Assembly (NCBI GenBank): GCA_900319645.1
Contig: ONPG01000008.1
Span: forward strand, 643-64,642
Source: an uncultured Bacteroidales bacterium
GTDB lineage: Bacteria > Bacteroidota > Bacteroidia > Bacteroidales > Paludibacteraceae
DNA length: 64,000 nt
Direction of reading: 5' to 3'
Part shown: positions 3,018-64,000 of the stretch, in pieces
Numbering within the stretch: the stretch's first letter is position 1
Layout: each line of letters starts with the position of its first letter
The notes under the pieces: generated by a model
Database searches by the model: none
The model's input: only the letters and a program-made list of their open reading frames with translations
What the model was told of the DNA's origin: nothing
Position numbers and translations under genes: made by a program

Positions 3018-3084
3018 AGTACATCAGTTTTGAAATCCGATGCAAAATTACAACTTTTTTCTTACATACGCAAGAGATTGTCTC

Positions 3085-3138
3085 AAAAAAGTATCTGCAA
3101 GTACTAATTTTACCCTATTTTTAGTACATAGAGATACT
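3085..3138. repeat. Imperfect upstream copy of the nagB terminator hairpin
   Basis: AAAAAAGTATCTGCAAGTACTA...TAGTACATAGAGATACT. The left arm differs from the 3169-3190 arm at one base. The right arm is degenerate. Confidence 0.6.
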
Positions 3139-3168
3139 AATTTAGCGTTTTTTGATGTATCTTGGCAC

Positions 3169-3227
3169 AAAAAAGTATCTACAAGTACTAATTTTATGCA
3201 TTTTTTAGTACTTGCAGATATTTTTTT
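3169..3227 (-). terminator. Rho-independent (bidirectional-type) terminator downstream of nagB
   Basis: A ~22-nt arm, AAAAAAGTATCTACAAGTACTA, pairs with TAGTACTTGCAGATATTTTTTT, with one mismatch in the middle. The A and T runs flank the stem. It begins 17 nt after the nagB stop. Confidence 0.65.
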
Positions 3228-3243
3228 AGGGCGCTTCTAAAAA

Positions 3244-4053
3244 TTACAGCAGGGTTTTCGGATCGAGGTTGTTGCGCTCGATATCTTTGAAATATTTGAA
3301 TGTACCGAGTTTGAGCTCTTCGCACGCAGCCTCGTCGCACACGATGATACCGTGCTGGTGGCGCTGGAGTTCGGAAACGGTCCACATATGGCTGATAGGC
3401 TCCTCTATAGCGTGCTGGAGCGCACGTGCTTTGTTGTGACCGTTGACCATGATCAGCACTTCCTTGGCATCCATAACGGTACCGACACCTACGGTGAGGG
3501 CAGTCTTGGGCACTTTGTTGACATCGTTGTCGAAGAAACGGCTGTTGGCTATGATGGTATCGGTGGTCAGCTCTTTCTTACGCGTACGGCTGGAGAGGGA
3601 GGAACCCGGCTCGTTGAAGGCGATATGTCCGTCAGGACCGATACCTCCGAGGAAGAGGTGGATACCACCGATATTGCGGATTTTCTCCTCATAGCGCGCG
3701 CACTCCGCCTCAAGGTCAGCGGCGTTGCCGTTCAGGATATTCACATTCTCCTTGCGGATATCAATGTGGCTGAAGAAATTGTTCCACATAAAGCTGTGGT
3801 AGCTCTCGGGGTGCTCTTCGGGAAGGCCTACATACTCATCCATGTTGAAGGTTACTACATTGCGGAAGGACACTTTGCCTGCCTTGTTGAGTTGGATAAG
3901 TGCACGGTACATACCCAGCGGCGAACTGCCGGTAGGAAGACCCAGCACAAAGGGTTTGCCCTCTTTGGGCTCAAACTCGTTGATACGTTTAGCTACATAA
4001 TTCGCAGCCCACTCACTCAGCAGGTCATACGAAGGTTGAATAATTACACGCAT
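3244..4053 (-). CDS. nagB: Glucosamine-6-phosphate deaminase
   Basis: 269-aa ORF with characteristic NagB blocks ([29 protein letters not shown]). Confidence 0.93.
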
Positions 4054-10800: not shown

Positions 10801-11102
10801 TCAAGCGAAACGATATCGTAGGCGATAAGCCAACATCCGTTGCTTGAATAGTGCGCAGTAGCGCCCTCATCATCCGAGACATACAAGCCGTAGCTACCCG
10901 TCTTGTCGTTGTTACCGGGTGCCCCGATATACCATTTATTCTTCAGTTGACTGTAAATGGTAGCATTGGCAGCAGGATTCAAGACCCATCTGTCACGATC
11001 GGCTTGGTTCTCGAAATCACAATAATAATTCTGCAGAGCCTGCACAGGTATGGCAACGAAGATTGTTGCCATCAAAACTGCTATTTGAAATAATCGCTTC
11101 AT
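7827..11102 (-). CDS. Secreted ~1090-aa surface protein, putative T9SS cargo (paralog of 11119..14334)
   Basis: 1091-aa ORF with a signal peptide. Domains in order: an N-terminal FEN..W-type module (YCDFENQADRDRWVLNP), an Fn3-like segment, a conserved middle domain, CDS-type Cys repeats (SCDSIIYLILN, NCDTTWILNF), and a C-terminal beta-sandwich-like tail (..GSYILLLRSEGTDKTAHVIVTP) resembling a type A T9SS sorting domain. Confidence 0.75.
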   Translation of the reverse strand: MKRLFQIAVLMATIFVAIPVQALQNYYCDFENQADRDRWVLNPAANATIYSQLKNKWYIGAPGNNDKTGSYGLYVSDDEGATAHYSSNGCWLIAYDIVSLDHLSTNDDYILTFDYCGMGNVASNFDGIYVLWIPMVDPDTGDSVKVGSIAASSGIPSAYENYVVTLQPKANMDYVGGSQTWKQCEAAIKNKKCDGKPHYLAFVWANTANQTQQPGAMVDNIAILDTRPCDAPAGLTLSIQGTTSLLSWVGTSAEYEVSAYSYETETWFGPKIVTGNTTSFSNLPIGQTDFIVRAKCAEGLYSLKTSISKLVYYPDQMCVDYLNLETAKCYTGTGFSSSNNFNNYILGPAVDDGPAQGSSRHTIHFDKMERDVHTEGLLPTIPDGELASVRLGNWEGGNQTERIEYSFNVDTIDYSVLLLKYAPVFENGSGHDDDIQSRFKLDIRIGNNSIGECGQADFNVNSAYANGGLKPGAAEQGWHLTPAAKANLRSSDVVWKEWTTVGVNLKKPEYQGKKLTVRLTTFDCAQTAHAGYAYFTLSCSDGKLKGMKCGAVNPVFEAPDGFVYRWAYASSEKYRLPDGTMPEQYVLGHEQHFEAGYQDDSLYVVDCMFVQDSSCFFSLYASTLATNPVAIMQKPAVTKSCATGKYHVQLDGSQSWVQEIDHVKGDTLESSIYHIDSYEWNIEGLPGGWSDEPAPAFDFPSSGGTYPITLRVTSGTCDSTVHYTLHLDELKETRDTVSVTLCDDVRKAGYQWSEKPDTAYFDYGTDSVVLFNAATSCDSIIYLILNEPVRIYEDTLVLPESLPFAYHGRSYSQNTLDTVPVSPDNCDTTWILNFEIYESLLVNMPQTSYILCGGDKVLNLEYDITRGRSLRFSYTFSDPAIPSISPAADVQRKGHYVLPIAIDPELTPNVYEGRLLLEDSLPKWNVTIPFTLTMQYASSVITQRWNDVLAIRNSDYNGGFVFDSVQWYVAGQPIEGARSFNYHTPGSNLRFGEEYTAYLWRNDGVGLFTCSFVPTKVDESQISNLPSLVKPHAPLTIQGKGTAYWYDLLGHGYDAQDYDNSAIYTPHTAGSYILLLRSEGTDKTAHVIVTP

Positions 11103-11118
11103 ACGCGCGGTTTTATGG

Positions 11119-14100
11119 TTAGTTCACTATCATTATCTGGGCTTTTGTTTCGCCCTTTGTATTTACCGATTTGAGTACAAAAACACCTCTATCATCGGGC
11201 ACTATCAACGTAGTATATCCCTGAGGGAGGGTATAGGAGCTATAATGTTGACCGGAGACGGTGTAATAACTTATTATGGCGGACTGCTCCATATATATAG
11301 GCAGTTTTTGCCCCGCATTGACAATTGTAGGATAAGGCGTTTGCTGCTCGTGATAGACAGGATAGATCGGGCAAGTAGCTATGCTCACGCTATCGGGACG
11401 GGTGAGTACTACGTAGTACTCGGACAAGGTATCAAGCGGCTGATAGAGATAAGAGCCAATCTCTCCCGCCAGAGGAACTCCGTTTTTGTACCACTGGAAT
11501 CGCGTGAACTTATATCCACCGTTAGCTTCCGGCGAAAGGAGAGTTAGCACATCATTCCATTTCTGCGCCACGACAGCGCTACTATAGCGGATTTCTACGT
11601 CCCGTGTCTCACGATAAACGCCGCAACAGAACTGATGGAATGCCAACTCAGCAGTATAGTATCCCGGCGTAATGTTGTTGGGATAGGGTATTGCAACAGT
11701 AGATACCGAAGAGTCGTAGATAACCGTATCACGCAGCTGAGGCGTATTGAACGTGATCACCAGACTATCGAAGACACCAGCCGTAATCGTGAATGGGATA
11801 AACAAGTTCTCATCATCCGCACAGAGGTAGGACAATGAATCTACGGAAGCATCCAAGCGCTGATTGACCGTCAGAGTCATATAAACCGCGCTATCGCAAC
11901 CATGAACGGACTTTAGCATAAAGAGCTGGTTGGTCATCGGATAGTTGTATGCATCACCGGCAATCACTACGCTACTATCCGAACAGATTGAGTCGTGGCG
12001 ATAGGTATCCTTCACCTCCGGCCAAACTTTCAAGTGAAGCGTGGATACGGAATCACATCCGGCAAAATTAGGATATACTCCTACATAAGTAGTATCGGTT
12101 TGGAACCATTTCTTGCCAAAATAGATCGGGCTTTCGGGGCATGTTTCATAGAAAAACTCCGTCTCACCAGGAATAATATTAGGCGTTATGATGGTATCAA
12201 TCCTGGTGCTATCGCATGCGTTTTCGACACCAATATAGGTTGTATAAATCACCTCTAATGTATCTCCCTCCGACCTACAGGTATATACCGGGCTCCAGTT
12301 GTATGACTCTGTGATAGAGCCGTCAGAGAGGCGTCTAAAGGACCAGTGTCCGTCTTCGGTCGGTTCGGAAGTGTGGTTTTCTTCGTCCTCGTATTTATAC
12401 ATCACATGCGAAGTATTGTGGAACCTAAGTTTACTGCTACACTCTTCATAGACGGGTTCGACGGTATAGGATGGCACCGGGAAACGCGGAGCGGAAATAG
12501 TGCTCACATCGAAGTAGCAGGAAGGATCTTCGATAAAGCTTACACGGCAGGTGTATTCCTGACGAGTAGGCTCAGCCGATAGTTCGCGATCGAACCAGAA
12601 AGGCTTATTACCCGGTGCATCAGGATTGCCTTTATACCACGCATAAGCGAATCCTTCCGGCGCAAAACACTCGATCTTGGCATCGTTGCCGCAATTCTCA
12701 GTCTCAATACGCGCTGAGGCGCAATCCACCGTTAAATAGGCATAGCCATAGTGTCCCGTTTGCGCACAATCGTAAGTAGTAAAGCGCACTTTGATATTTT
12801 GGCCGGCATAGGGCATCAGGTTGACTCCGATAGTAGTCCAATCTTTCCATGCAGCTTTATTATCCTTGGTTAAATTCCAACCGGCTTCCACACCATCGGA
12901 ATAAGAGAATACCGCCTGACCACAGGACTCATCAATCACATTGTCGTTCTCATCCAAAACCACCAAGTCAAAGGAAGGCTCTTCGTCGTGCGGGTGACCA
13001 CCCGGATTTTCCAGGACGACGGCATACTTGGCAATCAAGACGCCCTGGTTCTGCGCATCAACGGTAAAGTTATAGGTAATGGATTCGGCTTCAGCACCGT
13101 CGTTCCAGTTTCCTAACCGGACAGAAGCCAACGCTCCTTTAGGCACTGTAAACAACTGATCATCCGTACGCGGATCTGTCTCGGTAGGATCCATATGAAT
13201 CGTATGGCGGCTTTCCTCCGAATCGGGACCATTGTCAATAACACCTATATTATCATAAGGAGTAACACCTCCTGAAGAGCTTTTAAGCGGGTGGTAACCA
13301 TATGTGCAAACCACATTGGGACTATACAAATCCAGATATGCCACACAGTGATTCTCCGGACAATAGACCAGAATATTATTCTTGTAGCTGAAGTTGGATA
13401 CGAGGGAGCCGGCTTTACCGCACACTCGCACGTCATAAGTTCCCTCCATAATACGTTGTAGCACATAGGAACAATTCACACCGTCACGGGTATAGCCGTC
13501 CACGCCATCCCTGATACCATCCTGCCGACGCCAGGTAGAACTACCTATTTTGCGGTACTGTATCTCAAACTCATTCACCGCACCGGAACTCTCCCAGGAA
13601 ACAATCATCGTTGAATCGGCACAGACAGGTTCCGCCTGTACTTTCTTCGGCTTTTTGAGCGTTGCAGACCCTATCTGGATATTGTCGATACAGATACCGG
13701 ATTGGTGGATGTTTCCGTCAATATTTGCATTCACCCAAATGAACAGGATGGCAAAAACGAACCTCTTGGAATTGAGTCCGCTAACACGCACTTCATTAGA
13801 CAGAGCCACATTCTGCCATTGGTCGCTACCACATACGAACCGCTCTTTGGACTCGCCTAATTGCTCGCAAACCTGCGCAACCGCCTTGGGAAGTTCTCCA
13901 GACGTAGTTGATACGATATTATCCAGATACTGAGGATAGGTAGATGTAGTCAATGCCATCTCCGGACAAACGATCACATACAATTTCGAGTTCGTAGAAT
14001 CTCCCATTCCTTTCCAATCAAAACTGATGTCGTAGTTTTTCTGTTCGTCCGCATCCGGAAATTTAAAGCGCAGATAGGCAGCTACGATATTCGGCTGACT

Positions 14101-14334
14101 ACCATAGACCGGGTTGATGCCATCTGACGAGATATAGAGCGATTTGCGTCCCTCACTATGCACCATACTTCCTACCATCCATTTATCGGCGGCCGAAGAT
14201 GTATTCGGATTGAGCACCCAGCCAGAGAGATCTTCCGAATCCTCAAACGAGCAGGTATAAGGCACGCCAGTGGCTTGCGCCCAAGAGAGCACGCTGAAGA
14301 ACAAGATAATATGCAAGGTGAGGAATCTCCTCAT
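11119..14334 (-). CDS. Secreted ~1070-aa surface protein, putative T9SS cargo (paralog of 7827..11102)
   Basis: 1071-aa ORF with a signal peptide. It has the same domain order as its neighbour (YTCSFEDSEDLSGWVLNP; GCDSVSTLHLKV, GCDSAVYMTLTV; tail ..GVFVLKSVNTKGETKAQIMIVN). Only 16 nt separate it from the downstream gene. Confidence 0.75.
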   Translation of the reverse strand: MRRFLTLHIILFFSVLSWAQATGVPYTCSFEDSEDLSGWVLNPNTSSAADKWMVGSMVHSEGRKSLYISSDGINPVYGSQPNIVAAYLRFKFPDADEQKNYDISFDWKGMGDSTNSKLYVIVCPEMALTTSTYPQYLDNIVSTTSGELPKAVAQVCEQLGESKERFVCGSDQWQNVALSNEVRVSGLNSKRFVFAILFIWVNANIDGNIHQSGICIDNIQIGSATLKKPKKVQAEPVCADSTMIVSWESSGAVNEFEIQYRKIGSSTWRRQDGIRDGVDGYTRDGVNCSYVLQRIMEGTYDVRVCGKAGSLVSNFSYKNNILVYCPENHCVAYLDLYSPNVVCTYGYHPLKSSSGGVTPYDNIGVIDNGPDSEESRHTIHMDPTETDPRTDDQLFTVPKGALASVRLGNWNDGAEAESITYNFTVDAQNQGVLIAKYAVVLENPGGHPHDEEPSFDLVVLDENDNVIDESCGQAVFSYSDGVEAGWNLTKDNKAAWKDWTTIGVNLMPYAGQNIKVRFTTYDCAQTGHYGYAYLTVDCASARIETENCGNDAKIECFAPEGFAYAWYKGNPDAPGNKPFWFDRELSAEPTRQEYTCRVSFIEDPSCYFDVSTISAPRFPVPSYTVEPVYEECSSKLRFHNTSHVMYKYEDEENHTSEPTEDGHWSFRRLSDGSITESYNWSPVYTCRSEGDTLEVIYTTYIGVENACDSTRIDTIITPNIIPGETEFFYETCPESPIYFGKKWFQTDTTYVGVYPNFAGCDSVSTLHLKVWPEVKDTYRHDSICSDSSVVIAGDAYNYPMTNQLFMLKSVHGCDSAVYMTLTVNQRLDASVDSLSYLCADDENLFIPFTITAGVFDSLVITFNTPQLRDTVIYDSSVSTVAIPYPNNITPGYYTAELAFHQFCCGVYRETRDVEIRYSSAVVAQKWNDVLTLLSPEANGGYKFTRFQWYKNGVPLAGEIGSYLYQPLDTLSEYYVVLTRPDSVSIATCPIYPVYHEQQTPYPTIVNAGQKLPIYMEQSAIISYYTVSGQHYSSYTLPQGYTTLIVPDDRGVFVLKSVNTKGETKAQIMIVN

Positions 14335-14364
14335 ATTTCTGATTTCAATTTAGTGAACTATAAT

Positions 14365-16572
14365 TTAGTATATTTGCTGTATATCTGCACCATTGGTACC
14401 GGTAATGACGAACTCTACACGACGGTTGAGTTGGCGTCCTTCTTCAGTATCGTTGTCCGCAATCGGCTCTTTCTCGCCCTTGCCTTCAGCGGTGATACGT
14501 TCCGGAGCTACCCCACGCTCGATGAGGTTGTTACGAACGGCATTGGCACGACCTTCCGACAAGATCTGGTTCGCCTCGTCCGAACCGACGGCATCCGTAT
14601 GACCGACGATATGAATAGTCACACCCTCGTTCTCCTGCATAAAGCGCGCCAAGTCAGCCATAGCTGCTTCGGACTGAGGCAGGATATAGGTCTTGTTGGT
14701 AGCGAAGAACAGGTTCTCTATCTTCACCTTGATACCCTCCTTGATAGCCTGTATAAAGAGGTCGATGGTGTCACGCTCGAAGAGGATGGTATCTTCCTTC
14801 GGCATATAGCCTGCAGCAGTCAGATGAGCAATATAATTGCCTTTGGTAAGCGGCGTCTCGACAAATCCGTCGTCGGCAGCCTGTGCTACGTAGAGCGAGG
14901 TGGTATCCTGGACCGTTGTCAGGCGCACATTGGCTGCCACGGGATCCTTGGTCTCGCCGTCGTAGATATTCATGCACAAGGTATAGACCACCGGAGCCGG
15001 AATACGTTTGAGAGCTATGCGCACCGTATCGTAGGTGAACTCCTCGACGCGGTGGGTGACAGCCTCAGCCGGATAATAACCGTTCTTGGAAGCCGAGACG
15101 CGGTAGTCACCCTCGGCTACACGCCCCACTTTGACCTGACCTTGTTTGTTGGTATTCTTGGTCTTTTTCAGTTTCGCCGAGTCGGTTACCTCGACGGTCA
15201 CACCGCCAAGAGCCAATTGGGAATCTGCGTCGTAGGCATAGATGCCCAGTCGCGGCTGCGGCTTCAGAGGCAGCGGACTCTCCACCACCTGTTTGCGCGG
15301 CAGACTGAACCACACCGCCACTTTCACGCCCGCCAGGAAGGGATTGACATTCGCGTTGGCGACAGAGGTAGTCATCAAAGCCGAGTTAACCGGGAAATCC
15401 AAAGGATTGGGAGTAACTGCCATCTGCATAGGAATATCCTGTGCACCGTCTGCCGGACGCCGGGTAATCGAGTTGAGCACGCCATAGTCCGCAAAAAGCG
15501 AAACGCGCAACTTGGGAAGAGCCTGGATCCATTGGTCAAGATTCACACCAATCTCCGCAGAAGCAGCCAGATTCAATCCGAATTTCACATTCGTCGAAGG
15601 ACGGGACAATTCGGCATCGTTGACCAAAGCGTGTGCGTACATTTCGGTCAGATCAAGGATCAGCTCTTTGTCCTCAATGGTCGTGGTGAAGCGGCCGGAG
15701 AGGGAAGATGTACCCATTATACCCATTCCTACTTTCACACCCGCCTGCCAGAAGAGCGGCACCTTTTTCAGCTCCATACCCAGCAAAACCGGCACTTGCA
15801 CGAAACCTCCGACAATGCGGTCGTTCACATTTTGGAAGGCGTAGGTATAGGTCATCGTGTTCGGATAAGGATTCATTCCGTAGGACAAGAGCATCGTGCC
15901 GTCAGGCTGGTTGGAGACAGCCATATTGGTGTTGTAGGTATTGAACTCCGCACCTACAGTCATCAAGAACTGCTTGTATCGCATCTGGTATCCGAGACCC
16001 GCTCCGCCACCGACAAATCCTTTGTCTTTGTTCAGGAAACCAACTGGATTGGGTGTGCCCGGGTTAAAGGAGATACCGGAAGTAAAGAGATTGCTATAGC
16101 CCACTTGTCCCCAGAAACCCAGACGGTGGTCAATATCACGATTCTGATAAGCCATGACGCGTTTGTTGTTCTTCTCGATAGCAGCTATCTGCGCCAGATA
16201 TTGCGCTTTCTCCTCCGCAGCCGACAATTCCGGTTGGGACTTGGCAGTCTTGGCGGATTTGGCAGCCGGTTTGGCAGCCGGTTTGGAAGAAGCATTTGCC
16301 TGTTTAGCCTTGGCTTTTGCCGCCTCTTTCTTGCGTTTTTCCTGCTCTTTCTTCTTCTGCGCAGCCGCTTTCTCACGGGCTTTCTGAGCCTGTGCTTTCG
16401 CTTTCTCGCGTTCCTTGAGTTTCTTGGCTTTCTCTTTCTCGCGTTGCGCTTTGGCCTTGGCTTTGGCATCAGCCGCATAGACAGCAGCCACACTCTCACT
16501 GGTTAGGGACATTACCGGGACGATAGTCGTCATCCCGATCAGCAACAACAGTATGTAGATTGTCTGTTTCAT
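14365..16572 (-). CDS. OmpA-family outer membrane protein with K/A/E-rich linker, beta-barrel-like domain and two CarboxypepD_reg-like domains
   Basis: 735-aa ORF with a signal peptide. It has a lysine/alanine/glutamate low-complexity stretch (KAKAKAQREKEKAKKLKEREKAKAQ...). Its C-terminal OmpA-like peptidoglycan-binding domain carries HIVGHTDAVGSDEANQILSEGRANAV...NRRVEF. Confidence 0.85.
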   Translation of the reverse strand: MKQTIYILLLLIGMTTIVPVMSLTSESVAAVYAADAKAKAKAQREKEKAKKLKEREKAKAQAQKAREKAAAQKKKEQEKRKKEAAKAKAKQANASSKPAAKPAAKSAKTAKSQPELSAAEEKAQYLAQIAAIEKNNKRVMAYQNRDIDHRLGFWGQVGYSNLFTSGISFNPGTPNPVGFLNKDKGFVGGGAGLGYQMRYKQFLMTVGAEFNTYNTNMAVSNQPDGTMLLSYGMNPYPNTMTYTYAFQNVNDRIVGGFVQVPVLLGMELKKVPLFWQAGVKVGMGIMGTSSLSGRFTTTIEDKELILDLTEMYAHALVNDAELSRPSTNVKFGLNLAASAEIGVNLDQWIQALPKLRVSLFADYGVLNSITRRPADGAQDIPMQMAVTPNPLDFPVNSALMTTSVANANVNPFLAGVKVAVWFSLPRKQVVESPLPLKPQPRLGIYAYDADSQLALGGVTVEVTDSAKLKKTKNTNKQGQVKVGRVAEGDYRVSASKNGYYPAEAVTHRVEEFTYDTVRIALKRIPAPVVYTLCMNIYDGETKDPVAANVRLTTVQDTTSLYVAQAADDGFVETPLTKGNYIAHLTAAGYMPKEDTILFERDTIDLFIQAIKEGIKVKIENLFFATNKTYILPQSEAAMADLARFMQENEGVTIHIVGHTDAVGSDEANQILSEGRANAVRNNLIERGVAPERITAEGKGEKEPIADNDTEEGRQLNRRVEFVITGTNGADIQQIY

Positions 16573-57356: not shown

Positions 57357-58574
57357 ATGAACAGAACAGATTTTCCGATATTGAATGAGACCGTTCACAA
57401 GCGTCCGCTGGTCTATTTGGACAATGCAGCCACAAGCCAAAAACCGCAGGCTGTGATCGATGCGATTACCGAGGCGTACACCCATTGGAACAGCAATATT
57501 CACCGCGGTGTGCATCATTTAAGCCAGGTGGCTACCCGCCACCACGAGGAGGCGCGCAAAGCGGTAGCGGAGTTTATCGGCGCAAGGTCGTCGGATGAGA
57601 TCATCTTCACCAAAGGCACAACCGACAGCCTGAATGCCTTGGCGTTTTCTTTTGGCGAGGCTTTTGTCCGCGAGGGGGATGAGATTATTGTCTCGGCTGT
57701 GGAACACCACTCAAATATCGTTCCATGGCAAATGCTCTGTGGGCGCAAGAAAGCCGTGCTCCGGCATATTCCCTTGCGTGCGGATCATACGCTCGATATA
57801 GAGGCTTTCAAAGGTCTTCTCAGCGAAAAGACGAAGCTCGTCAGCGTGGCGCATGTAAGCAATGTGCTGGGCATCATCAACCCGATAGAGGAGATTATCC
57901 GTCTGGCGCACGAGAAGAATGTGCCGGTGTGCATCGATGGCGCGCAGAGTGTGCCGCATATGTCCGTCAACGTGCAAGCGCTGGACTGCGATTTTCTGGC
58001 GTTCTCCGGACACAAGATGTACGGTCCGACAGGTATCGGCGTGCTCTACGGCAAACGCGAGTGGCTCGAACAACTGCCGCCGCACGAGGGTGGGGGAGAG
58101 ATGATCAACCATGTGCGCTGGAGCGGAACGACGTATAACGAGTTGCCCTATAAGTTCGAGGCAGGCACACCTAATTTCGTCGGCTCCTATGCGTTGCACA
58201 AGGCGATTGAATACATGCAAGCCGTTGGTTTGGAGGCGATTGAGGCGCACGAACACGAACTAACACAGTACTGTGAATCCCGTTTAGCCGCCATCGATGG
58301 CGTACATATCTATGCCGCCGGGCAAAAGAAAGCCGGTGTCATCAGCTTCAATATCAGCAATCAGCAATCAAAACTCATCCATCCCTTTGATATCGGCACG
58401 CTGCTGGACCAGCAAGGCGTAGCCGTCCGCACGGGACACCATTGTGCCGAGCCGCTGATAGACGAATTGGGCATACCGGGAACGGTGAGAGTGTCGTTCG
58501 GGCTGTACAACGACAAAGCGGATGTAGATGCTTTTATCGCCGCGCTCCAAAAGGCGATCATGATGCTCAGTTAA
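57357..58574 (+). CDS. sufS: Cysteine desulfurase, SufS-type (class V aminotransferase)
   Basis: 405-aa ORF with the PLP-lysine block SGHKMYGPTGIG and the catalytic Cys loop RTGHHCAEP. Confidence 0.9.
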   Translation: MNRTDFPILNETVHKRPLVYLDNAATSQKPQAVIDAITEAYTHWNSNIHRGVHHLSQVATRHHEEARKAVAEFIGARSSDEIIFTKGTTDSLNALAFSFGEAFVREGDEIIVSAVEHHSNIVPWQMLCGRKKAVLRHIPLRADHTLDIEAFKGLLSEKTKLVSVAHVSNVLGIINPIEEIIRLAHEKNVPVCIDGAQSVPHMSVNVQALDCDFLAFSGHKMYGPTGIGVLYGKREWLEQLPPHEGGGEMINHVRWSGTTYNELPYKFEAGTPNFVGSYALHKAIEYMQAVGLEAIEAHEHELTQYCESRLAAIDGVHIYAAGQKKAGVISFNISNQQSKLIHPFDIGTLLDQQGVAVRTGHHCAEPLIDELGIPGTVRVSFGLYNDKADVDAFIAALQKAIMMLS

Positions 58575-58578
58575 ATCA

Positions 58579-58606
58579 AAAACGGCAGCCTTTCGGTTGC
58601 CGTTTC
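58579..58606. terminator. Bidirectional terminator between convergent sufS and hsp20
   Basis: AAACGGCAGCC-TTTC-GGTTGCCGTTT, with one G-U pair. Confidence 0.6.
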
Positions 58607-58628
58607 TGTTTACCGGGTACTTTGTACT

Positions 58629-59063
58629 TTATTTGATTTCAATCTGTTTGGTCGTCTTGCCAACCACTTTCTGCAGCTTAGGCAGTTCGATGGTCAGGAT
58701 ACCATCCTCCACCTTTGCGTTGATTTCTTCCTCGTTTACATCATCCGGCAGGGTGTAACGCTGCTCATAGTTGGTGTACGAGAACTCGCGGCGCAGATAG
58801 TGCGAGTGTTTGTCTTCCTCTTTGTGCTCGAACTTGTTCTCGATGGCGACGCACAGGTTGTGGTCTTCGTCGATATGAACGCGGCAGTACTCTTTCTTTA
58901 CGCCCGGAGCTGCGAGTTCAACGATATAGGCTTTTTCTGTCTCTTTGACGTTAACCGATGGGGCAGTTGTGGTAGCTGTGTTCATCAGATCAGAGTTCAG
59001 AAACTCATCAAATACGGTCGGGAACCATCCGTTTCTACGATACATTGCAGGTGTCATAATCAA
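58629..59063 (-). CDS. Hsp20/alpha-crystallin family small heat-shock protein
   Basis: 144-aa ORF with an alpha-crystallin domain (VNVKETEKAYIVELAAPGVKK...DGILTIELPK). Confidence 0.9.
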   Translation of the reverse strand: MIMTPAMYRRNGWFPTVFDEFLNSDLMNTATTTAPSVNVKETEKAYIVELAAPGVKKEYCRVHIDEDHNLCVAIENKFEHKEEDKHSHYLRREFSYTNYEQRYTLPDDVNEEEINAKVEDGILTIELPKLQKVVGKTTKQIEIK

Positions 59064-59151
59064 ATCTCCTAAATTAAGTTAAACAATGTTTGACGTAGTT
59101 TGCGCTTCGCTGTTTGGAGAGGTTTGCGTAGTTGCGTTTCACCCTATAAAA

Positions 59152-59167
59152 GGCAATCTTTGTGCCA
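59152..59167 (-). promoter_or_regulatory. Sigma-54-like promoter element (TGGCAC-N5-TTGC) upstream of hsp20
   Basis: The minus strand reads CTGGCACAAAGATTGCC, with canonical GG/GC spacing, ~90 nt upstream of the hsp20 ATG. No TAnnTTTG motif was found in this leader. Confidence 0.4.
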
Positions 59168-59177
59168 GATAGCGAAA

Positions 59178-59240
59178 TACTGACAAAATGTCCATTTCGG
59201 GTGTCATTTTGTCCATTTCTGAGTGCCATTTTGTCCACCT
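59178..59240. repeat. Three tandem ~21-22-nt repeats containing (T)GTCCA cores
   Basis: CTGACAAAATGTCCA (59180), GTGTCATTTTGTCCA (59201) and GTGCCATTTTGTCCA (59223). On the hsp20 strand they read GAAATGGACAAAATG-like and lie directly upstream of the sigma-54-like element. Confidence 0.7.
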
Positions 59241-59294
59241 GCGTTGGGTTTGGGGAAAAGTACTGCTTTTTGGGACATACGCAAGAGAAAAATG

Positions 59295-59318
59295 AAAAAA
59301 GTGCCTGGAGCACTTTTT
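59295..59318. terminator. Small bidirectional-type terminator hairpin
   Basis: AAAAAAGTGC-CTGGA-GCACTTTTT. On the minus strand it follows the 435-aa gene and its long 3' hairpin. Confidence 0.5.
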
Positions 59319-59403
59319 CTTGTTGGAAGGTTGGAGGTAATGATAGCTCGCATGAGGAAACTTGCTTGCGAGGCGCTTTTAGCTGTCATGGTTAAGTCGT
59401 CCT

Positions 59404-59478
59404 TGGGAGATGGTCCCGTGATGGTCTTGTCTTAGGCTCGTCAGGACAAGCACCGGACCATCACGGGACCATCTCCCA
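59404..59478. repeat. 23-bp perfect inverted repeat (long hairpin) with a nested 5-bp stem
   Basis: TGGGAGATGGTCCCGTGATGGTC (59404-59426) is the exact reverse complement of 59456-59478; this was checked base by base. The inner pair TTGTC/GACAA lies at 59427-31 and 59445-49. Confidence 0.85.
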
Positions 59479-59552
59479 TCCTAAGCCCAAGCATCCACTA
59501 TCGAACACCCCTCTTGGAGCGGCAGAGCCTTCACGGGGTTTAGGGCAAAGCC

Positions 59553-60860
59553 TTAGTGGGAGCCCTCCGGCTTCTCGACTTCCACCATGATTTCGTTTTC
59601 CCAAATAGCATAGAGTTTTCCGTCCGCAATACCCCGCATCAAAATCACATCATCCCACACGGTAACGTTCTTCAGAACGGGGTGTTTGGTCATATCAAGC
59701 ACTATCGTCTCCGGCGTTTTTCCCGGCAACCGCACGGTCAGCACACATTGATGCCGGCTCATCGTCACGTCCTTCACCTCATAATCGGTTTCCTCCAGTC
59801 CTACGGCTTTGATGGCTTCCGTCGCCAGCAGCTCTTCTATCTCATCGCTGTGTTTCTCTATCCATTCCGACCCCAAAAAATCTGTATCTGCTTGGCGCAT
59901 CTTTTCGGGCAAAGGCCACGGTGCACAGGACGGCATATCGGATAGGGCCTGCAACGCCATCTCGCTTTTGTCTTCGCTCATCTGATAGCTGTAGTAGCCG
60001 TGGTGTGCCAGTTTCGCGCTTTCGGGCGACACCACACGAACGATCCCGTATCTCTCCATGAATCCCCAGCGCTGAAAAACCGCCTCACCCATTTCGGGTG
60101 CTCCGCTGGAAGTCACAGGTATCTGCAACGCGTCGTAAATAGCCACTCCTTCAGCGGACTGAACCATCAACCAGAGCATGTATCCGCCGTCCCCGTCTTG
60201 TGCCACCCACCATTGATTGCCTTTCCATACTTGGGGTTGGAACTGCCCGGCACTCTCTTCGCCCATATACAAAGGATGCGCGTAATAGCAAATCACCCGC
60301 CCGACCATATTCATCAGATGACACCATCCTCCTATACGCATGTTGCGGGCTTGTGTCAGGCTGTCAGCAGCCACGGCATGTGCCGTTTGTACGTCAGGCA
60401 AATGCCGCTGCAGCAAGGCGTCCACCTGTTGCAACACCTCTATCAGCACGTCCGAGCTCCCGTCCGCATCAGGTGTCATTCCCCGGGCTTTGGTGTAGAA
60501 CAACGCCAAGGCATAGCAATACGCCAAGGGGTCGTATCTGTTCATTCTCTCCGCCACCTCGCTTGTGTCCTTGTCCGGTTGCAGCAGTTCGGGCAGCTGC
60601 TCTGCGCGATAGAACGCCACCAATAAATCCGCCAGCCGCAGGATCTCCGGCATGATCATCAACCGCCCTTCCGTCACGTTATAGGCATGCAGGATTTGAT
60701 CCCAGAGGTTGTCCACAGCCCGTTCACCGGCAGTCCCTTGCGCCAGACGGCTGAAGACCATTTTGCTCCTTGTGCCTAATTCCGTAGCAACACGTGTGGA
60801 ACTGGAAGCAAAGAAGTTTTGCGCCATCAGTTCTTGCAATATCTCGCTTTTCGTATTCAT
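59553..60860 (-). CDS. Hypothetical protein (435 aa), no recognised domain
   Basis: Long ORF with ordinary GC content. The start was set at the ATG at 60860 (MNTKSEILQ...), because the GTG at 60890 overlaps the predicted -7 promoter element. Confidence 0.6.
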   Translation of the reverse strand: MNTKSEILQELMAQNFFASSSTRVATELGTRSKMVFSRLAQGTAGERAVDNLWDQILHAYNVTEGRLMIMPEILRLADLLVAFYRAEQLPELLQPDKDTSEVAERMNRYDPLAYCYALALFYTKARGMTPDADGSSDVLIEVLQQVDALLQRHLPDVQTAHAVAADSLTQARNMRIGGWCHLMNMVGRVICYYAHPLYMGEESAGQFQPQVWKGNQWWVAQDGDGGYMLWLMVQSAEGVAIYDALQIPVTSSGAPEMGEAVFQRWGFMERYGIVRVVSPESAKLAHHGYYSYQMSEDKSEMALQALSDMPSCAPWPLPEKMRQADTDFLGSEWIEKHSDEIEELLATEAIKAVGLEETDYEVKDVTMSRHQCVLTVRLPGKTPETIVLDMTKHPVLKNVTVWDDVILMRGIADGKLYAIWENEIMVEVEKPEGSH

Positions 60861-60889
60861 ATCTCTATTGGACTTTTTGAAATCCGGCA

Positions 60890-60920
60890 CAAAAGTACTT
60901 CTTTTCCGTCAAACTGCCAA
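60890..60920 (-). promoter_or_regulatory. Bacteroidota-type promoter (TTG-N20-TACTTTTG) for the 435-aa gene
   Basis: The minus strand reads TTGGCAGTTTGACGGAAAAGAAGTACTTTTG, ~30 nt upstream of the ATG at 60860. Confidence 0.5.
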
Positions 60921-60999
60921 ATTATTTCCTGATTTTGTCACTCTTTCGTACCAAACCAAGCCGTTTTGATACGGATACGCAATTTTTTGTGCTGATTGT

Positions 61000-61030
61000 T
61001 TGAAGCATAGCCCGAATAGCTGTATCTTTG
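61000..61030 (+). promoter_or_regulatory. Bacteroidota-type promoter (TTG-N20-TATCTTTG), first of a tandem pair
   Basis: TTGAAGCATAGCCCGAATAGCTGTATCTTTG with exact spacing. Confidence 0.5.
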
Positions 61031-61060
61031 CAAAAAAATTGAGAAATAATGCTCCGGGAT

Positions 61061-61091
61061 TTGGTAAATTCAAAAATTTGTTATATCTTTG
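61061..61091 (+). promoter_or_regulatory. Bacteroidota-type promoter (TTG-N20-TATCTTTG), second of a tandem pair
   Basis: TTGGTAAATTCAAAAATTTGTTATATCTTTG with exact spacing, 61 bp downstream of the first promoter and ~260 nt upstream of the first ORF. Confidence 0.5.
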
Positions 61092-61351
61092 CAACCGTTT
61101 TGGAGAGAAACCCAAAACTTGAAGCGAATTTACTTTTGACCCGACAAACAGAAATCTGGTACATTTCCACAGAGGGGCATAGAGTAACCGTTTCCGCGTA
61201 TATGAATCTAAAGCAGATCTCATATATAGCGTGGAGCATTATTTCTCTTTGTTTCTGTTGGGTTTACCAGAGCCTTGTTTGCAACAAAGTTGAGTATTAC
61301 TCTGCGCTTTTTTGTTTGAAAGACACAAATAACAATTAAAATAATACCACT

Positions 61352-61579
61352 ATGACGTACATGTACGAAGTCGTCGTCAAACGCGACACAGTAGCAGGCT
61401 CTTTGCGCCTTCCCGCAGGACTTTCTGTCCGAGTTCCTTATGATCAAATGTCCAGTCCTCTCACCTCCACAGCAGGCAAACAACGCATTGCCCAGGCCTT
61501 CTTGCAACAATGCGGACTTGACATGAGCCGTGAGATGAATTATATCAGCACTGCTTATATGGATGCTTATAGAATGTAA
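61352..61579 (+). CDS. Small hypothetical protein (75 aa)
   Basis: ORF MTYMYEVVVKRDTVAGSLRLPAGLSVRVPYDQMSSPL... It is the first gene after the tandem promoters. It resembles short Bacteroidota-restricted proteins I recall being annotated as a DUF family, but I cannot verify this. Confidence 0.5.
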   Translation: MTYMYEVVVKRDTVAGSLRLPAGLSVRVPYDQMSSPLTSTAGKQRIAQAFLQQCGLDMSREMNYISTAYMDAYRM

Positions 61580-61583
61580 ATAC

Positions 61584-61736
61584 ATGGGAATGACAAAAAC
61601 AACTGCCGCTAAGCGATTTTTTAGAATGGCAGAAAAAGATTTTAAAACCGGCAAAAAAGGCTCAGCTGTTGCAGAAACTCGTGCTGGAGTTGGACTATTA
61701 GCCATAGATATAATCCAACGATTAAATAACCATTAA
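61584..61736 (+). CDS. Possible 50-aa small protein (basic N-terminus, short hydrophobic C-terminal segment)
   Basis: Hand-translated as MGMTKTTAAKRFFRMAEKDFKTGKKGSAVAETRAGVGLLAIDIIQRLNNH. It lies 4 nt after the previous stop and ends 11 nt before the next start. It falls below the ORF-track length cutoff. Confidence 0.3.
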   Translation: MGMTKTTAAKRFFRMAEKDFKTGKKGSAVAETRAGVGLLAIDIIQRLNNH

Positions 61737-61747
61737 ATTTCAACGTT

Positions 61748-63220
61748 ATGTCAATATTATCAGCTTTTGAAAAATTTAAAAAAGTAGGAGAAAGTGCTCT
61801 GAATGTCGCAAGAAACTTGGACGCCGAAGATGTCTTAGGAGTAATCATTGCGCCTGTTCCGTATGTTTTGTACAAAGGGACAAAGTTTGCAATAGAATCA
61901 CTTTCCTCAGAAGACGAATCCCAAGCAGGTCCAGCTCTTGCAGGTTTATATAACTCATATATAAGGGGAGAAAGGTCTGAAGATGATACAATTCAATTAA
62001 TGAAAGAAGCTCTAAAGAACAATAACAACCGAGTGCGAGGGTTATACCATTTCTTTATGGCTGTAATTTTACTAAACAAAGCACAGAGTGCAATAGACAA
62101 AGAAAAAACTCATCTTTATAATGATGCTATGACACACTTTAATGCTGCATCAGAAAAAGACTCCATAAATGAACTTGTTGCATTATTCAAAGACAATGAT
62201 CTTGAATTTAGCTTTGAAGGAAAAACAATCACATCTGAAACTGTAAGTTATTTTGTTCATTATGAAATGGGGTGCTTCTATGAACAAAAAAGAGACTTAG
62301 GAAGAGCAAGAGCAGAGTATATATATGTTATGGCATCCACTGACTATAATTACAAAGAATATTCTATGGAAGGATATCGTCGTATGACAGATGTTCTTAA
62401 AAAAGAATTTGTGGATAATATTCCAATTGGTGCTCGTCAATACATATTGTTTGCACAGAATAAAGAAAAATTAGCTGGCGCGTATGACGAGGAAAGTCTT
62501 ATTCGATGTGTCTTTACTATTGATGATTATCCAGATAATTTAACTTTTTCAACTCATAGACCAGAAGCAAATAGACTATATATTTTGCACCCTTGCCGAG
62601 AAAATTTCTATATTGCATATGATAATTACGACGAATATATCTTTAACGATAAGATTAAGGAATTTTCATATTTATGCAGATGTTTGGGAGCAACAAGCAT
62701 TGAATACGAGAGCATTAAAGGTTCTGACATAAGTCAATCGAGTCTGCTAAATATAGATGCAGGGTTAGGCGGTAGTTACAAAGCTTTTGAAGGGGATGCT
62801 GGTGTTAAATATGGAAAGAAACAAAGTGAGCAGCAAAAAGTTTCTTCTCGTTCGTATTTGAGATACAAATTTCCTCCATTAAAAACGAAGGCAGCAGTTC
62901 CTAATGGGTTAGTATGGACTCAAGATCCAGAGGAACGAGAACTTATTGACATGTTTAGTCAGGGAAATTTAGAGGAAAGAGTTTGGTTCTTTAATTCTAA
63001 ACAGTTCTCTCAAAGAAATAAGTCTGTTACTATTGATGTAAAGGCCTCGTTCGGGGCTATGATGATCAAAATAAGTCCACGTTTTGACATGCAAAAGGAT
63101 ACTACATTTGCTCAGCAAGAAGAAAAAGAATGGAAACTAAGTGTAAGTTTCAAGCCCGAAGATTTAGGTCTAATGGATAGAATAAAAGCTTGGTTTAAAC
63201 ACTTATTTGGAATAAAATAA
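61748..63220 (+). CDS. Hypothetical protein (490 aa), no recognised domain, AT-rich
   Basis: Long uninterrupted ORF in a ~30% GC region, which makes a chance ORF of this length very unlikely. The N-terminal half looks helical and the C-terminal half beta-rich. Confidence 0.7.
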   Translation: MSILSAFEKFKKVGESALNVARNLDAEDVLGVIIAPVPYVLYKGTKFAIESLSSEDESQAGPALAGLYNSYIRGERSEDDTIQLMKEALKNNNNRVRGLYHFFMAVILLNKAQSAIDKEKTHLYNDAMTHFNAASEKDSINELVALFKDNDLEFSFEGKTITSETVSYFVHYEMGCFYEQKRDLGRARAEYIYVMASTDYNYKEYSMEGYRRMTDVLKKEFVDNIPIGARQYILFAQNKEKLAGAYDEESLIRCVFTIDDYPDNLTFSTHRPEANRLYILHPCRENFYIAYDNYDEYIFNDKIKEFSYLCRCLGATSIEYESIKGSDISQSSLLNIDAGLGGSYKAFEGDAGVKYGKKQSEQQKVSSRSYLRYKFPPLKTKAAVPNGLVWTQDPEERELIDMFSQGNLEERVWFFNSKQFSQRNKSVTIDVKASFGAMMIKISPRFDMQKDTTFAQQEEKEWKLSVSFKPEDLGLMDRIKAWFKHLFGIK

Positions 63221-63229
63221 TTTACTAAT

Positions 63230-63601
63230 ATGGAAAATTCAGTTTTGAAATTTGCAGAACTTTTTATTAAAACAGGTTCTGTGTTTGCAAGTGCCGATGG
63301 TAGTATTGACGCCCGTGAACGTCTTTTTGTAAGCAATTTTATAGAAGCTTTAACAAAGGAGTCTATAATAGAAATCTCCGGCAAAGAAATACTCTTAACA
63401 TTACAACCTGATTTAGATTTTGCCAAGTTAATTGCGGAAACCAATGAGTTTTTATCGCAATGTGATAATAAAGAAAAGGAAACGGCTACTACCATGCTCA
63501 ATGTTTTTATTGAGGAACTAATTTCTTCTGACGGAATTATACATGAAAACGAAGAGAAAATGTATAATCAATGGAAAGAAGAGTTTCTAAAAAACAAATG
63601 A
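63230..63601 (+). CDS. TerB-like domain protein
   Basis: 123-aa ORF with two ADG/SDG-x-I-x-x-x-E motifs (SADGSIDARERLF and SSDGIIHENEEKMY), spaced as in TerB-family helical bundles. Confidence 0.6.
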   Translation: MENSVLKFAELFIKTGSVFASADGSIDARERLFVSNFIEALTKESIIEISGKEILLTLQPDLDFAKLIAETNEFLSQCDNKEKETATTMLNVFIEELISSDGIIHENEEKMYNQWKEEFLKNK

Positions 63602-63698
63602 TCTTATGACCAACACTCTAACCTTCAATCAGCCTGCAAGACGTGTGTTTGCTGCCGTGAAGCACGTCCTGCTGGCTATGGATAAAATATACTAAAAT

Positions 63699-64000
63699 AT
63701 GTATAACTATAAAACTAATGATGTCACTCCGTATGAAGAGGAACAAATACAAAAAATAGAGCAGTGGATTAATAAAAAAGAGCCACTGCTTTCAAAGGTA
63801 TTAAACAAGTTAATTGAACCTATTTCCTCTCTCACCAAGTTAATTGTTCCATCCTCCGCAATTGAGGGTGCTTTAGTACAGATTAATAAAGCCGCCGAAT
63901 TCTTAACAGACGTACAAGATATTGAAAGGGATGCAAATGTAAAAGATATTACCGAACTACAGTATAAAAGTCTCCAATTATCAGATAAATTGGCTAATGA
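63699..64000 (+). CDS. EcsC-family-like protein (N-terminal fragment; continues beyond the window)
   Basis: Hand-translated as MYNYKTNDVTPYEEEQIQKIEQWINKKEPLLSKVLNKLIEPISS...DITELQYKSLQLSDKLAN. The E-x-x-I-x-x-IE-x-W start and the later D-I-x-x-L...LA block resemble EcsC N-termini. Confidence 0.55.
   Translation, partial: MYNYKTNDVTPYEEEQIQKIEQWINKKEPLLSKVLNKLIEPISSLTKLIVPSSAIEGALVQINKAAEFLTDVQDIERDANVKDITELQYKSLQLSDKLAN

Follow-up and report, generated by a model that had tools for sequence, protein, structure and literature searches.

We analysed a 64,000-nucleotide (nt) stretch of DNA from an uncultured Bacteroidales bacterium (GenBank assembly GCA_900319645.1, contig ONPG01000008.1), called the window throughout, and followed up a cluster of five genes at its right-hand end. 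These genes encode a DUF6140 protein of 75 amino acids (aa), proteins of 50, 490 and 123 aa, and the beginning of an EcsC-family protein. An initial annotation, made from the sequence alone, had read the cluster as one AT-rich accessory module, perhaps for defence or envelope stress. On comparison with related loci, the genes belong to an island that is a head-to-tail array of exchangeable cassettes and not one operon-system. The unit that recurs across contexts is a structured leader RNA followed by the DUF6140 gene and a gene of the 490-aa family. We favour the reading that this is a defence-type (anti-phage or anti-mobile-element) cassette array at a chromosomal hotspot, with a probability of roughly 0.55. 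The right-hand end of the window contains the following features, where ORF stands for open reading frame and GC for G+C content.

59553-60890, minus strand: gene for a 435/445-aa protein, no family match, divergent from the array (GC 0.54)
60890-60921, minus strand: promoter motif 3, facing the divergent 435/445-aa gene
60999-61030, plus strand: promoter motif 1, Bacteroidetes consensus TTTG-N17-23-TAnnTTTG
61060-61091, plus strand: promoter motif 2, same consensus
61098-61313, plus strand: structured leader RNA, between the promoters and the first gene, upstream of DUF6140
61352-61579, plus strand: ORF of 75 aa, DUF6140 (GC 0.48)
61584-61736, plus strand: ORF of 50 aa
61748-63220, plus strand: ORF of 490 aa
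63230-63601, plus strand: ORF of 123 aa
63604-63683, plus strand: 80-nt remnant, a copy of the 5' end of the downstream 116-aa gene with a 29-codon ORF; left bracket of the EcsC cassette
63699-64000, plus strand, running past the window end: first 100 codons of an EcsC-family gene of 289 aa

The ORFs, gaps, drop in GC and promoter motifs were all verified, so the sequence-level observation is real. The five plus-strand ORFs are tightly packed, with intergenic gaps of exactly 4, 11, 9 and 97 nt. Positions 61748-64000 have a GC of 0.343, compared with a mean of 0.494 in 2-kb windows over the first 60 kb (standard deviation 0.031, minimum 0.414; z = -4.8). At third codon positions (GC3), the 50-aa, 490-aa, 123-aa and EcsC genes reach 0.22-0.30, compared with 0.65-0.68 in sufS, ahpC, sod and the endonuclease/exonuclease/phosphatase (EEP) gene; the overall GC is 0.32-0.37 in the cassettes and 0.52-0.54 in core genes. 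The low GC first noted is therefore genuine, but it is ~34% and not 30%, and the first gene is not AT-rich. The tandem promoter pair ahead of the cluster was also recovered, as two plus-strand matches to the Bacteroidetes consensus. This motif occurs eight times in the whole window (1.15 expected), and three of the eight matches fall in one intergenic region (60890-61091).

An accessory island of exchangeable cassettes

The window ends inside the EcsC gene, as first noted, with 100 codons inside. The rest was read from a 173-kb contig (ENA ERZ930536), here labelled L001; the other loci and contigs compared carry labels of the same kind. Between window positions 58000 and 64000 the two sequences show 100% identity (window position = L001 position + 51747). 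The exact 490-aa protein was found on contigs in 27 collection blocks, and the 23 contigs read share the same context. The 100-aa EcsC fragment in the window remains below the Pfam cut-off (20.6 bits versus 30.4, E = 3.8e-4). The full 289-aa protein matches PF12787 with 141.4 bits (E = 4.9e-41; residues 14-278 on profile positions 1-240 of 240), which bears out the EcsC label. It has a single hydrophobic segment (residues 119-137); by hydropathy, no transmembrane (TM) segments were found in the 490-, 123-, 75- and 50-aa proteins.

The 80-nt remnant fills most of the 97-nt gap ahead of EcsC and forms a direct repeat with the 5' end of the 116-aa gene (L001 11857-11936 and 13025-13104; 89% identical, spacing 1168 nt). 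In L099-L105 the 123-aa gene is directly followed by the intact 116-aa gene, with no EcsC gene between them. The repeat brackets and this direct junction elsewhere identify EcsC and the 63-aa ORF behind it (orf63) as an inserted cassette. In L001, the genes beyond the window follow in this order.

After EcsC: 63-aa protein with two TM helices
L001 13027-13377 (~window 64774-65124): 116-aa protein
After the 116-aa gene: 327-aa AAA_15/AAA_21 ABC ATPase (PADLOC PtuA 3.4e-19, AriA 2.9e-14)
After the ABC ATPase gene: terminator-like hairpin
After the hairpin: Sel1-repeat protein
After the Sel1 gene: 179-aa PLDc_2 nuclease-family protein, DrmC/MkoB-like (PADLOC)
After the PLD gene: 98-aa protein
After the 98-aa gene: 336-aa ORF, degenerate and Y1-transposase-like (marginal Pfam match, E = 0.028)
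After the 336-aa ORF: esterase, glycosyltransferase, ahpC, sod and EEP-family genes

Low GC extends from approximately L001 position 9000 to 14800 and intermediate GC to ~16700, and the island is roughly 6-8 kb in size. Reading rightwards thus recovered the continuation of the island; the integrase or att repeats envisaged by the initial annotation were not among it. In L001 the island shows no integrase/recombinase domain, tRNA or flanking direct repeats (att). As an integrase-type island it would therefore lack the hallmark genes and repeats, while its absence from the site in relatives and its deviant composition are as expected of one.

No relatives of the flanking 435-aa protein were found among the GTDB species representatives, and the nearest species were therefore identified by SufS. 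They share 70-88% SufS identity with the window genome (88, 81, 79 and 73% among the top) and are uncultured Bacteroidales or Paludibacteraceae metagenome-assembled genomes (MAGs), several of them labelled RUG, which we take to be rumen MAGs. The host of the window is probably an uncultured Paludibacteraceae-like Bacteroidales from rumen or gut. The order uvrC-tsaE-DUF3316-S41-ABC-gldB-sufS is kept in L021, L022, L023, L024 and L026, where the EEP gene follows within ~80-160 nt after sufS; in the window genome it is 13.7 kb farther away. None of 13 relatives (L019-L031) carries island genes at the sufS-EEP site. The interval is empty in five species; it contains 4.3 kb of other genes in L019 and three large ORFs (435, 456 and 491 aa) without assignment in L020. 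A syntenic site that is empty or otherwise filled in relatives marks a variable hotspot and the island as accessory, and the deviant GC and GC3 agree with a foreign origin. The initial annotation had set one outcome against its own proposal, namely syntenic core sequence in all relatives; this was checked and is not the case, which favours the accessory reading. The sufS-EEP interval, noted in the window at 57357-58574 and onward, is thus hypervariable in Paludibacteraceae-like genomes.

Homologues of the 490-aa gene were found in the following contexts (numbers in the gene orders are protein lengths in aa; identities refer to the 490-aa homologue).

L099-L101, 93%: 435-like(-)-leader-DUF6140-48/50-490-122-116-ATPase
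L103-L105, 86-96%: DUF6140-50-486-123-116-M48 peptidase-DUF3658-...
L015, 76%: DUF6140-50-487-63-116-ATPase-189-PLD-370-ATPase; without 123-aa gene and EcsC
L008, 68%: DUF6140-79-489, alone between core genes (RlmL/QueA)
L012, 52%: 435-like(-)-leader-DUF6140-487-116-like-373; next to ArgS
L011, 32%, 729 aa: 78 aa-729-157

EcsC is restricted to the lineage of the window, where it lies in its repeat-bracketed cassette, and is absent from L008, L012, L015 and L099-L105. The 123-aa gene follows the 490-aa gene in L099-L107 (79-84% identity) and is optional, with the 490-aa gene standing without it in three of the other contexts. The five genes are thus not one module, and the co-occurrence of a 490-aa/TerB/EcsC trio, which had been put forward as a check, was not observed. 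Module identities are uneven; a tblastn map of L099 against the window gave 99% for DUF6140, 93% for the 490-aa, 79% for the 123-aa, 92% for the 116-aa and 58% for the 435-aa protein. The junction genes DUF6140 (GC 0.48) and orf116 (GC 0.45) also differ in GC from the cassettes that they border (0.32-0.37). Both observations fit cassette exchange by recombination at conserved junctions, and we infer that cassettes are swapped at these two genes.

The 116-aa gene is a second conserved junction gene alongside DUF6140. Its protein, which belongs to a cluster of 115 members, is 92-95% conserved across contexts, and its neighbours change between an ABC ATPase, an M48 peptidase with DUF3658, and a 373-aa protein. 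In L015, one array carries two AAA_21 ATPase copies (2506-3501 and 5791-6708) that are 90% and 98% identical to the window-lineage copy, which indicates cassette duplication or exchange. The divergent 435-aa gene has a homologue at the same position in L099 (58% identity) and a partial one in L012 (31%), and it may therefore belong to the unit despite its native-like GC. Just 3' of this minus-strand gene lies an inverted repeat with perfect 23-bp arms around a loop of 29 nt (59404-59478; L001 7657-7731), which is probably a terminator and accounts for weak, spurious Rfam miRNA matches.

The leader RNA and the DUF6140 head gene

An nhmmer profile detected the leader once in the window and once in each of 58 loci, 59 sources in all. 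It was on the gene strand and upstream of the first array gene in all 41 human-gut loci examined; DUF6140 came first in 25 of these loci, the family gene in 11 and a gene for a 273-aa protein in 5. Rfam 15 (4227 families) contained no match to the leader, either at E <= 1 in window positions 58500-64000 or at E <= 0.01 in seven related loci. A 96-aa ORF at 61049-61339, which overlaps the leader, was considered as a gene and rejected: its DNA is conserved in L099, L012 and L008 with insertions and deletions that are not multiples of three, and the ORF is probably spurious.

The leader can form two structures. The 5' rod consists of helix P1 (TCTGGTA at 61155-61161 paired with TACCAGA at 61265-61271), a purine/pyrimidine helix P2 and an apical stem (-39 to -52 kcal/mol). 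When trimmed before the 3' segment, the leader of each lineage independently folds into the same long rod. The 3' hairpin forms by pairing of GCGTGGAG (61229-61236) with CTCTGCGC (61300-61307), and a U-run comes directly after it (61308-61313). This hairpin spans ~88 alignment columns, and RNAalifold on the full region gave 30 pairs, 12 of them with compensatory changes. The rod and the hairpin share the middle strand and are therefore mutually exclusive.

When the 5' rod was aligned with MAFFT, its inner helices were placed out of register between lineages, and RNAalifold then recovered P1 alone. For this reason we used a covariance model built from gut-type sequences only. It matched the window at 61151-61274 (24.8 bits, E ~1e-3), L012 (E = 1.3e-5) and L181 (E = 2.4e-11). 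In the resulting alignment, 87.5% of cells were paired, compared with 76% in shuffles and 41-54% in slid controls, and 13 pairs were changed on both sides, compared with 6.3 in shuffles (0/500 shuffles as high). With five sequences only and an alignment fitted to the model, this covariation is support and not proof. The folding z-score of the leader was -3.2 (223 nt) and -3.8 (284 nt).

We read the leader as a candidate terminator/antiterminator attenuator, a view based on folding and covariation. It resembles riboswitch and attenuator leaders in having two exclusive helices that share a strand, a U-run after the 3' one, compensatory changes in both, and a position between promoter and first gene. 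It differs from them in belonging to no Rfam family; its trigger or effector could be a ligand or a protein, with DUF6140 as one candidate by pure inference. In some gut loci a promoter-like motif stands between the element and DUF6140, and the element may therefore be a separate small RNA there. The leader region also contains a 25-nt inverted repeat (61031-61055 and 61233-61257; 84% complementary, 177 nt apart) that encloses the second promoter. It could provide extra RNA pairing in transcripts from the first promoter or be the arms of an invertible (phase-variable) promoter; the segment had a single orientation in all contigs compared.

The initial annotation had found no recognizable domains in the two tiny proteins and the 490-aa protein. 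This stands for the 490-aa and 50-aa proteins, which have no Pfam match, but the first tiny protein is DUF6140 (PF19637; 41.1 bits versus a cut-off of 27, E = 1.8e-10; residues 4-71 on profile positions 3-68 of 69). A literature search retrieved no paper mentioning DUF6140. Of the eight related contexts in which the upstream side is visible, seven have the DUF6140 gene next to the gene of the 490-aa family; in the most distant one, L011, a 78-aa ORF lies there. The 50-aa protein has no match in Pfam, PADLOC, NCBIfam or PHROGs. An intact 48-50-codon ORF with 54-82% identity is present in L015, L099, L101 and L105, its position is taken by a 79-aa ORF in L008, and L012 has no ORF there. The 50-aa protein is probably real but dispensable.

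A metagenome scan with an alignment of the family core (nine sequences, also used for viral loci) yielded 80 loci, mostly from human gut, in which the family gene encodes ~740 aa. The gut architecture is leader, DUF6140, ~740-aa family protein, DUF6140 and variable cassettes. The gut version of DUF6140 has 73 aa (Pfam 37.6 bits, 2.3e-9); its gene lies directly upstream of the family gene in 33 loci and directly downstream of it in 36. Two copies are present in 14 of the loci. DUF6140 precedes at least a dozen unrelated genes in human-gut loci, and in about two-thirds of cases the spacing to the next gene is between a 1-nt stop/start overlap and 16 nt. This makes DUF6140 a shared small head gene of diverse cassettes. 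One such cassette pairs an EcsC-like protein of 251 aa (E = 0.0019) with a 124-aa TM protein encoded behind it; other followers encode proteins of 273, 393, 403, 450, 515, 569, 581 and 677 aa. DUF6140 also precedes a PDDEXK_4 nuclease gene: in seven loci (L139, L141, L168, L172, L176, L177 and L180), a recurrent cassette downstream of the family gene encodes this nuclease (350 aa) and two dynamin-like GTPases, one of 815 aa with a weak TerB-like N-terminus and one of 565 aa with DLP_helical. The architecture as a whole is new: it combines a structured leader that lacks annotation, DUF6140 as a head gene common to different cassettes, and a large protein family whose domain is undescribed. It is common in gut Bacteroidales.

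The 490-aa protein family and the TerB question

The 490-aa protein matches nothing in Pfam, PADLOC, NCBIfam or PHROGs and had been called an orphan. A word-indexed search retrieved only 10 clusters of relatives; with a profile search of 1.84 billion representatives, 773 clusters matched at E <= 1e-3, 538 at E <= 1e-10 and 190 at E <= 1e-30, and the orphan label was dropped. Beyond the closest relatives, nearly all matches cover the C-terminal part (query ~140-230 to ~475), in proteins of 350-900 aa. The soluble protein comprises a TPR-like helical N-domain (~40-225) and a widely conserved alpha/beta C-domain (~225-475). Across 74 members, P262, Y278, Y288, G314, A315 and W390 are invariant, and R230, H281, P282, K302 and R403, among others, are nearly so. 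In these members no Pfam, PADLOC or NCBIfam model covers the conserved core, and a PDB sequence-profile search gave nothing significant for it. An AlphaFold2 model from a 10-sequence alignment was unusable (predicted local distance difference test, pLDDT, 59). The model from the 74-sequence alignment (pLDDT 83.7, predicted template modelling score 0.79) has a helical N-half and an alpha/beta C-half, with residues 328-360 forming a disordered loop. Searches of PDB and BFVD with Foldseek returned only TPR, 14-3-3 and Sel1-like helical matches (E ~0.04-0.1), which fit the N-half, and no matches to the C-domain.

A two-repeat tail of 105-140 aa is present in 86 of 158 family members, with the repeat consensus LTxxExEYxxxxxxxLxDGxIxxxERRxLxRxRxxLGISxERAxELE. 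Five of ten tails gave sub-threshold TerB and/or DUF533 matches (best 23.6 bits), the family profile has a weak match to 2ou3, a COG3793 TerB protein of solved structure (E = 0.084), and one of the 74 members matches BnzA (1.1e-5). These three sources (Pfam, 2ou3 and BnzA) are weak evidence that the tails may be TerB-like. The window protein ends right after the core and has no tail. In nine of the 74 members (including P0029, P0030, P0032, P0034 and P0038) an EF-Tu domain-II-like segment was detected (NCBIfam EF-Tu, down to 2e-29); in members inspected, it sits between the core and the TerB-like tail.

A link of the family to PDC-S48 was considered and withdrawn. In the 45 of 74 members that match this model, the match is confined to the repeats of the C-terminal tail, and the core domain is therefore not PDC-S48; the window protein has no such repeats. 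Neither the 490-aa nor the 123-aa protein matches PDC-S48 at E <= 1, and a literature search retrieved no paper mentioning it.

The TerB label originally given to the 123-aa protein does not hold by hidden Markov model (HMM). The protein scores 13.4 bits against Pfam TerB (PF05099; cut-off 24.4, E = 0.1) and 15.6 bits against DUF533 (cut-off 29.6, E = 0.012), and a PDB sequence search with a profile of the protein and eight close homologues matched no TerB chain at E <= 10. It is soluble and contains two DG-[SI]-I-x3-E motifs (residues 23-30 and 101-108), and two homologues carry the automatic JGI name 'tellurite resistance protein'. The 123-aa protein might be a free-standing counterpart of the tail fused in relatives of the 490-aa protein, a split-gene relation suggested by the motifs, to which we give about one chance in three.

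The family is almost absent from mobile-element collections, with one locus in viral contigs, none in plasmids and one weak match in phage records. The viral-contig match is the single IMG/VR locus L188. The phage record (GenBank MT836227.1, 1564-2271; 27% identity) is an unannotated 14.8-kb 'Bacteriophage sp.' from human faeces. Both may be host fragments or rare phage carriage.

A possible role in defence and its alternatives

The case for a defence role of the array is circumstantial. The gene context is defence-like: full-length EcsC matches the PADLOC models PDC-S29 (1.7e-9, profile 50-214 of 220) and PDC-S30 (9.9e-7), which carry no curated cut-off, and a PtuA/AriA-like ATPase and a PLD nuclease are nearby. 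The literature also records EcsC-like genes together with jukA, a sensor of jumbo phages, in putative operons. The first proposal of an accessory, perhaps defensive, locus was reasonable.

The island is composed of four modules. The first comprises the two promoters, the leader RNA, DUF6140 and the 50-aa and 490-aa genes, with the 123-aa gene in some lineages, and the second EcsC and its 63-aa two-TM partner, a 1.17-kb cassette inserted between the 80-nt direct repeats. The conserved 116-aa protein and the PtuA/AriA-like ABC ATPase form the third module, and the Sel1 protein, PLD-family nuclease and 98-aa protein the fourth. Transcription of the array may be gated by the leader as a terminator/antiterminator switch. 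In the 490-aa protein, the variable TPR-like N-domain could serve as sensor and the conserved C-domain as effector. The TerB-like double repeat, fused C-terminally in most relatives, would possibly be supplied in trans by the 123-aa protein; it would link the 490-aa protein with the membrane or with a signal from it, a role also put forward for the TerB proteins of Bunzi, Shango and Dionysus. A module of its own, likewise acting at the membrane, would be formed by EcsC and the two-TM protein.

Known systems resemble parts of this arrangement. TerB proteins are components of the validated Bunzi, Shango and Dionysus systems, with membrane surveillance as a proposed role. The likeness lies in a small TerB-like component (BnzA, SngA and DinB, respectively) combined with other proteins, and in the TerB-like double-repeat tails of relatives of the 490-aa protein. 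However, the 123-aa protein of the window is below the TerB threshold and matches no BnzA or SngA model, the partners in those systems (helicase, pore-forming toxin, MAEBL) are absent at the locus, and none of these systems contains the C-domain conserved in the 490-aa family. Like PDC-S29/PDC-S30 islands, the locus is a variable stretch of foreign composition with ATPase and nuclease genes beside EcsC. Unlike them, the L001 island has no BREX, DISARM or type I restriction-modification genes, and EcsC is paired with the 63-aa two-TM protein in a repeat-bracketed cassette. The 327-aa ATPase, outside the window, recalls Septu (PtuA-PtuB) and PARIS (AriA-AriB), but no HNH (PtuB) or TOPRIM (AriB) partner is present in the island, the nearest nuclease is the PLD protein two genes away and past a terminator-like hairpin, and the ATPase module is separate from the window's five genes.

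Several points weigh against a defence array of this kind. None of the window's five genes matches a validated defence system; the 490-aa, 123-aa, 50-aa and DUF6140 proteins match no PADLOC model at all, and NCBIfam and PHROGs likewise gave nothing meaningful for the five window proteins. PDCs are candidates of untested function, defined by embedding in BREX, DISARM or type I restriction-modification loci (Payne et al., bioRxiv 10.1101/2024.01.29.577857), and the PDC-S48 matches of relatives come from the tail repeats only (profile ~210-275 of 411) and not from the core. The ATPase without a PtuB/HNH partner is not Septu. As the C-domain has no recognizable catalytic fold, its role as 'effector' is a guess. 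The minimum free energy structure of the full window leader is the 5' rod, and the attenuator interpretation draws on folding and covariation from few independent lineages. For the split-gene relation, hhalign placed the two motifs of the 123-aa protein in line with those of the fused tails, but at a probability of only 17% (E = 0.0015); an HMM built from the 123-aa proteins matched nothing when run against all family proteins; and L008, L012 and L015 lack the 123-aa gene. The 23 contigs read with an identical 435-aa protein, in three distinct contexts, all carry the island or its visible start, and no empty site within the species was seen among the exact-protein contigs.

A broader version of the defence reading is possible, though we hold it only tentatively and doubt it more than we believe it. 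In this version, gut and rumen Bacteroidales would share a cassette platform of a kind not yet described, in which the attenuator-type leader and a near-invariant 73-75-aa DUF6140 protein head exchangeable, unrelated defence-like genes (the 490/740-aa family with its new C-terminal domain, EcsC with a TM protein, nuclease with dynamin-like GTPases). DUF6140 would be a common regulator, such as the factor that binds the leader, or an adaptor, and the 490-aa family would be a new family of anti-phage effectors.

Were the defence reading true, a family of hundreds of clusters, common in human-gut Bacteroidales and without Pfam, PADLOC or PDB match, would gain a testable role in defence against phages or mobile elements. 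The leader, which is outside Rfam, would be a candidate regulator of Bacteroidales defence genes; to our knowledge, few cis-regulatory RNAs are known in Bacteroidales, and we know of hardly any description of conserved RNA leaders ahead of defence arrays. The position of DUF6140 ahead of many unrelated genes would point to a common control or adaptor logic for exchangeable cassettes, and DUF6140 and the leader could be used as anchors in the search for more Bacteroidales accessory systems. Even without a defence role, the locus would remain a clear example, with well-defined limits, of how cassettes turn over at a hotspot in the chromosome.

Among the alternatives, the array could consist of selfish toxin-antitoxin-like pairs or be the cargo of a decayed mobile element without benefit to the host, with DUF6140 as antitoxin or regulator of diverse toxic partners. 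The small DUF6140 gene closely spaced ahead of many unrelated larger genes, the foreign composition and the degenerate Y1-transposase-like ORF downstream would all agree with this. We nevertheless think it improbable: an integrase, tRNA or flanking repeats were not found, the family is nearly missing from plasmids, phages and viral contigs, and one near-invariant small protein is unlikely to neutralize a dozen unrelated partners. Moreover, toxin-antitoxin and defence functions are not mutually exclusive.

It is also unlikely that the five genes act together as a single membrane-associated stress or defence system, with the two small proteins beside the 490-aa, TerB-like and EcsC proteins. Tight same-strand packing behind shared promoters suggests such a system, at least six other contexts show the 123-aa gene beside the 490-aa gene, and EcsC-like genes are within two genes of the family gene in some gut loci (cluster 11, 8/80 loci). 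Against this, EcsC is missing from every other close context of the 490-aa gene (L008, L012, L015 and L099-L105) and lies in a cassette flanked by the 80-nt duplication of the next gene's 5' end; in gut loci, a DUF6140 gene stands between the family gene and the EcsC-like gene, and the 123-aa gene is absent in L008, L012 and L015.

We give equally little weight to a Ter-type or envelope/metal-stress resistance module, in which the TerB-like and EcsC proteins would serve membrane homeostasis and not anti-phage defence. It would be consistent with the tellurite resistance name given to the two 123-aa homologues, the sub-threshold TerB/DUF533 matches, the hydrophobic segments in EcsC and the 63-aa protein, and the link of gut relatives to dynamin-like GTPases and DUF4112 membrane proteins. 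Yet TerB remained below the Pfam threshold with no solved TerB chain matched, and none of terZ, terA, terC, terD and terE is represented among the Pfam families of genes within 10 kb on each side in L001. The window EcsC does resemble B. subtilis EcsC (ecsABC) in its full-length PF12787 match and one central hydrophobic segment. It differs in being horizontally mobile and AT-rich and in having no adjacent EcsA/EcsB transporter; neither ecsA nor ecsB is near it in L001, where the nearby ATPase is of the AAA_15/AAA_21 type and has no permease. The fast cassette turnover, foreign composition and nuclease and ATPase neighbours fit conflict systems better than stress genes of a housekeeping kind.

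Finally, the idea that the low GC is native to a core but fast-evolving or lowly expressed region of the lineage, with which the presence of the island or its visible start on all 23 contigs would agree, is largely refuted by the syntenic site without the island in all nearest species, by the GC3 difference from core genes and by the occurrence of the same modules beside other core genes, RlmL/QueA in L008 and ArgS in L012.

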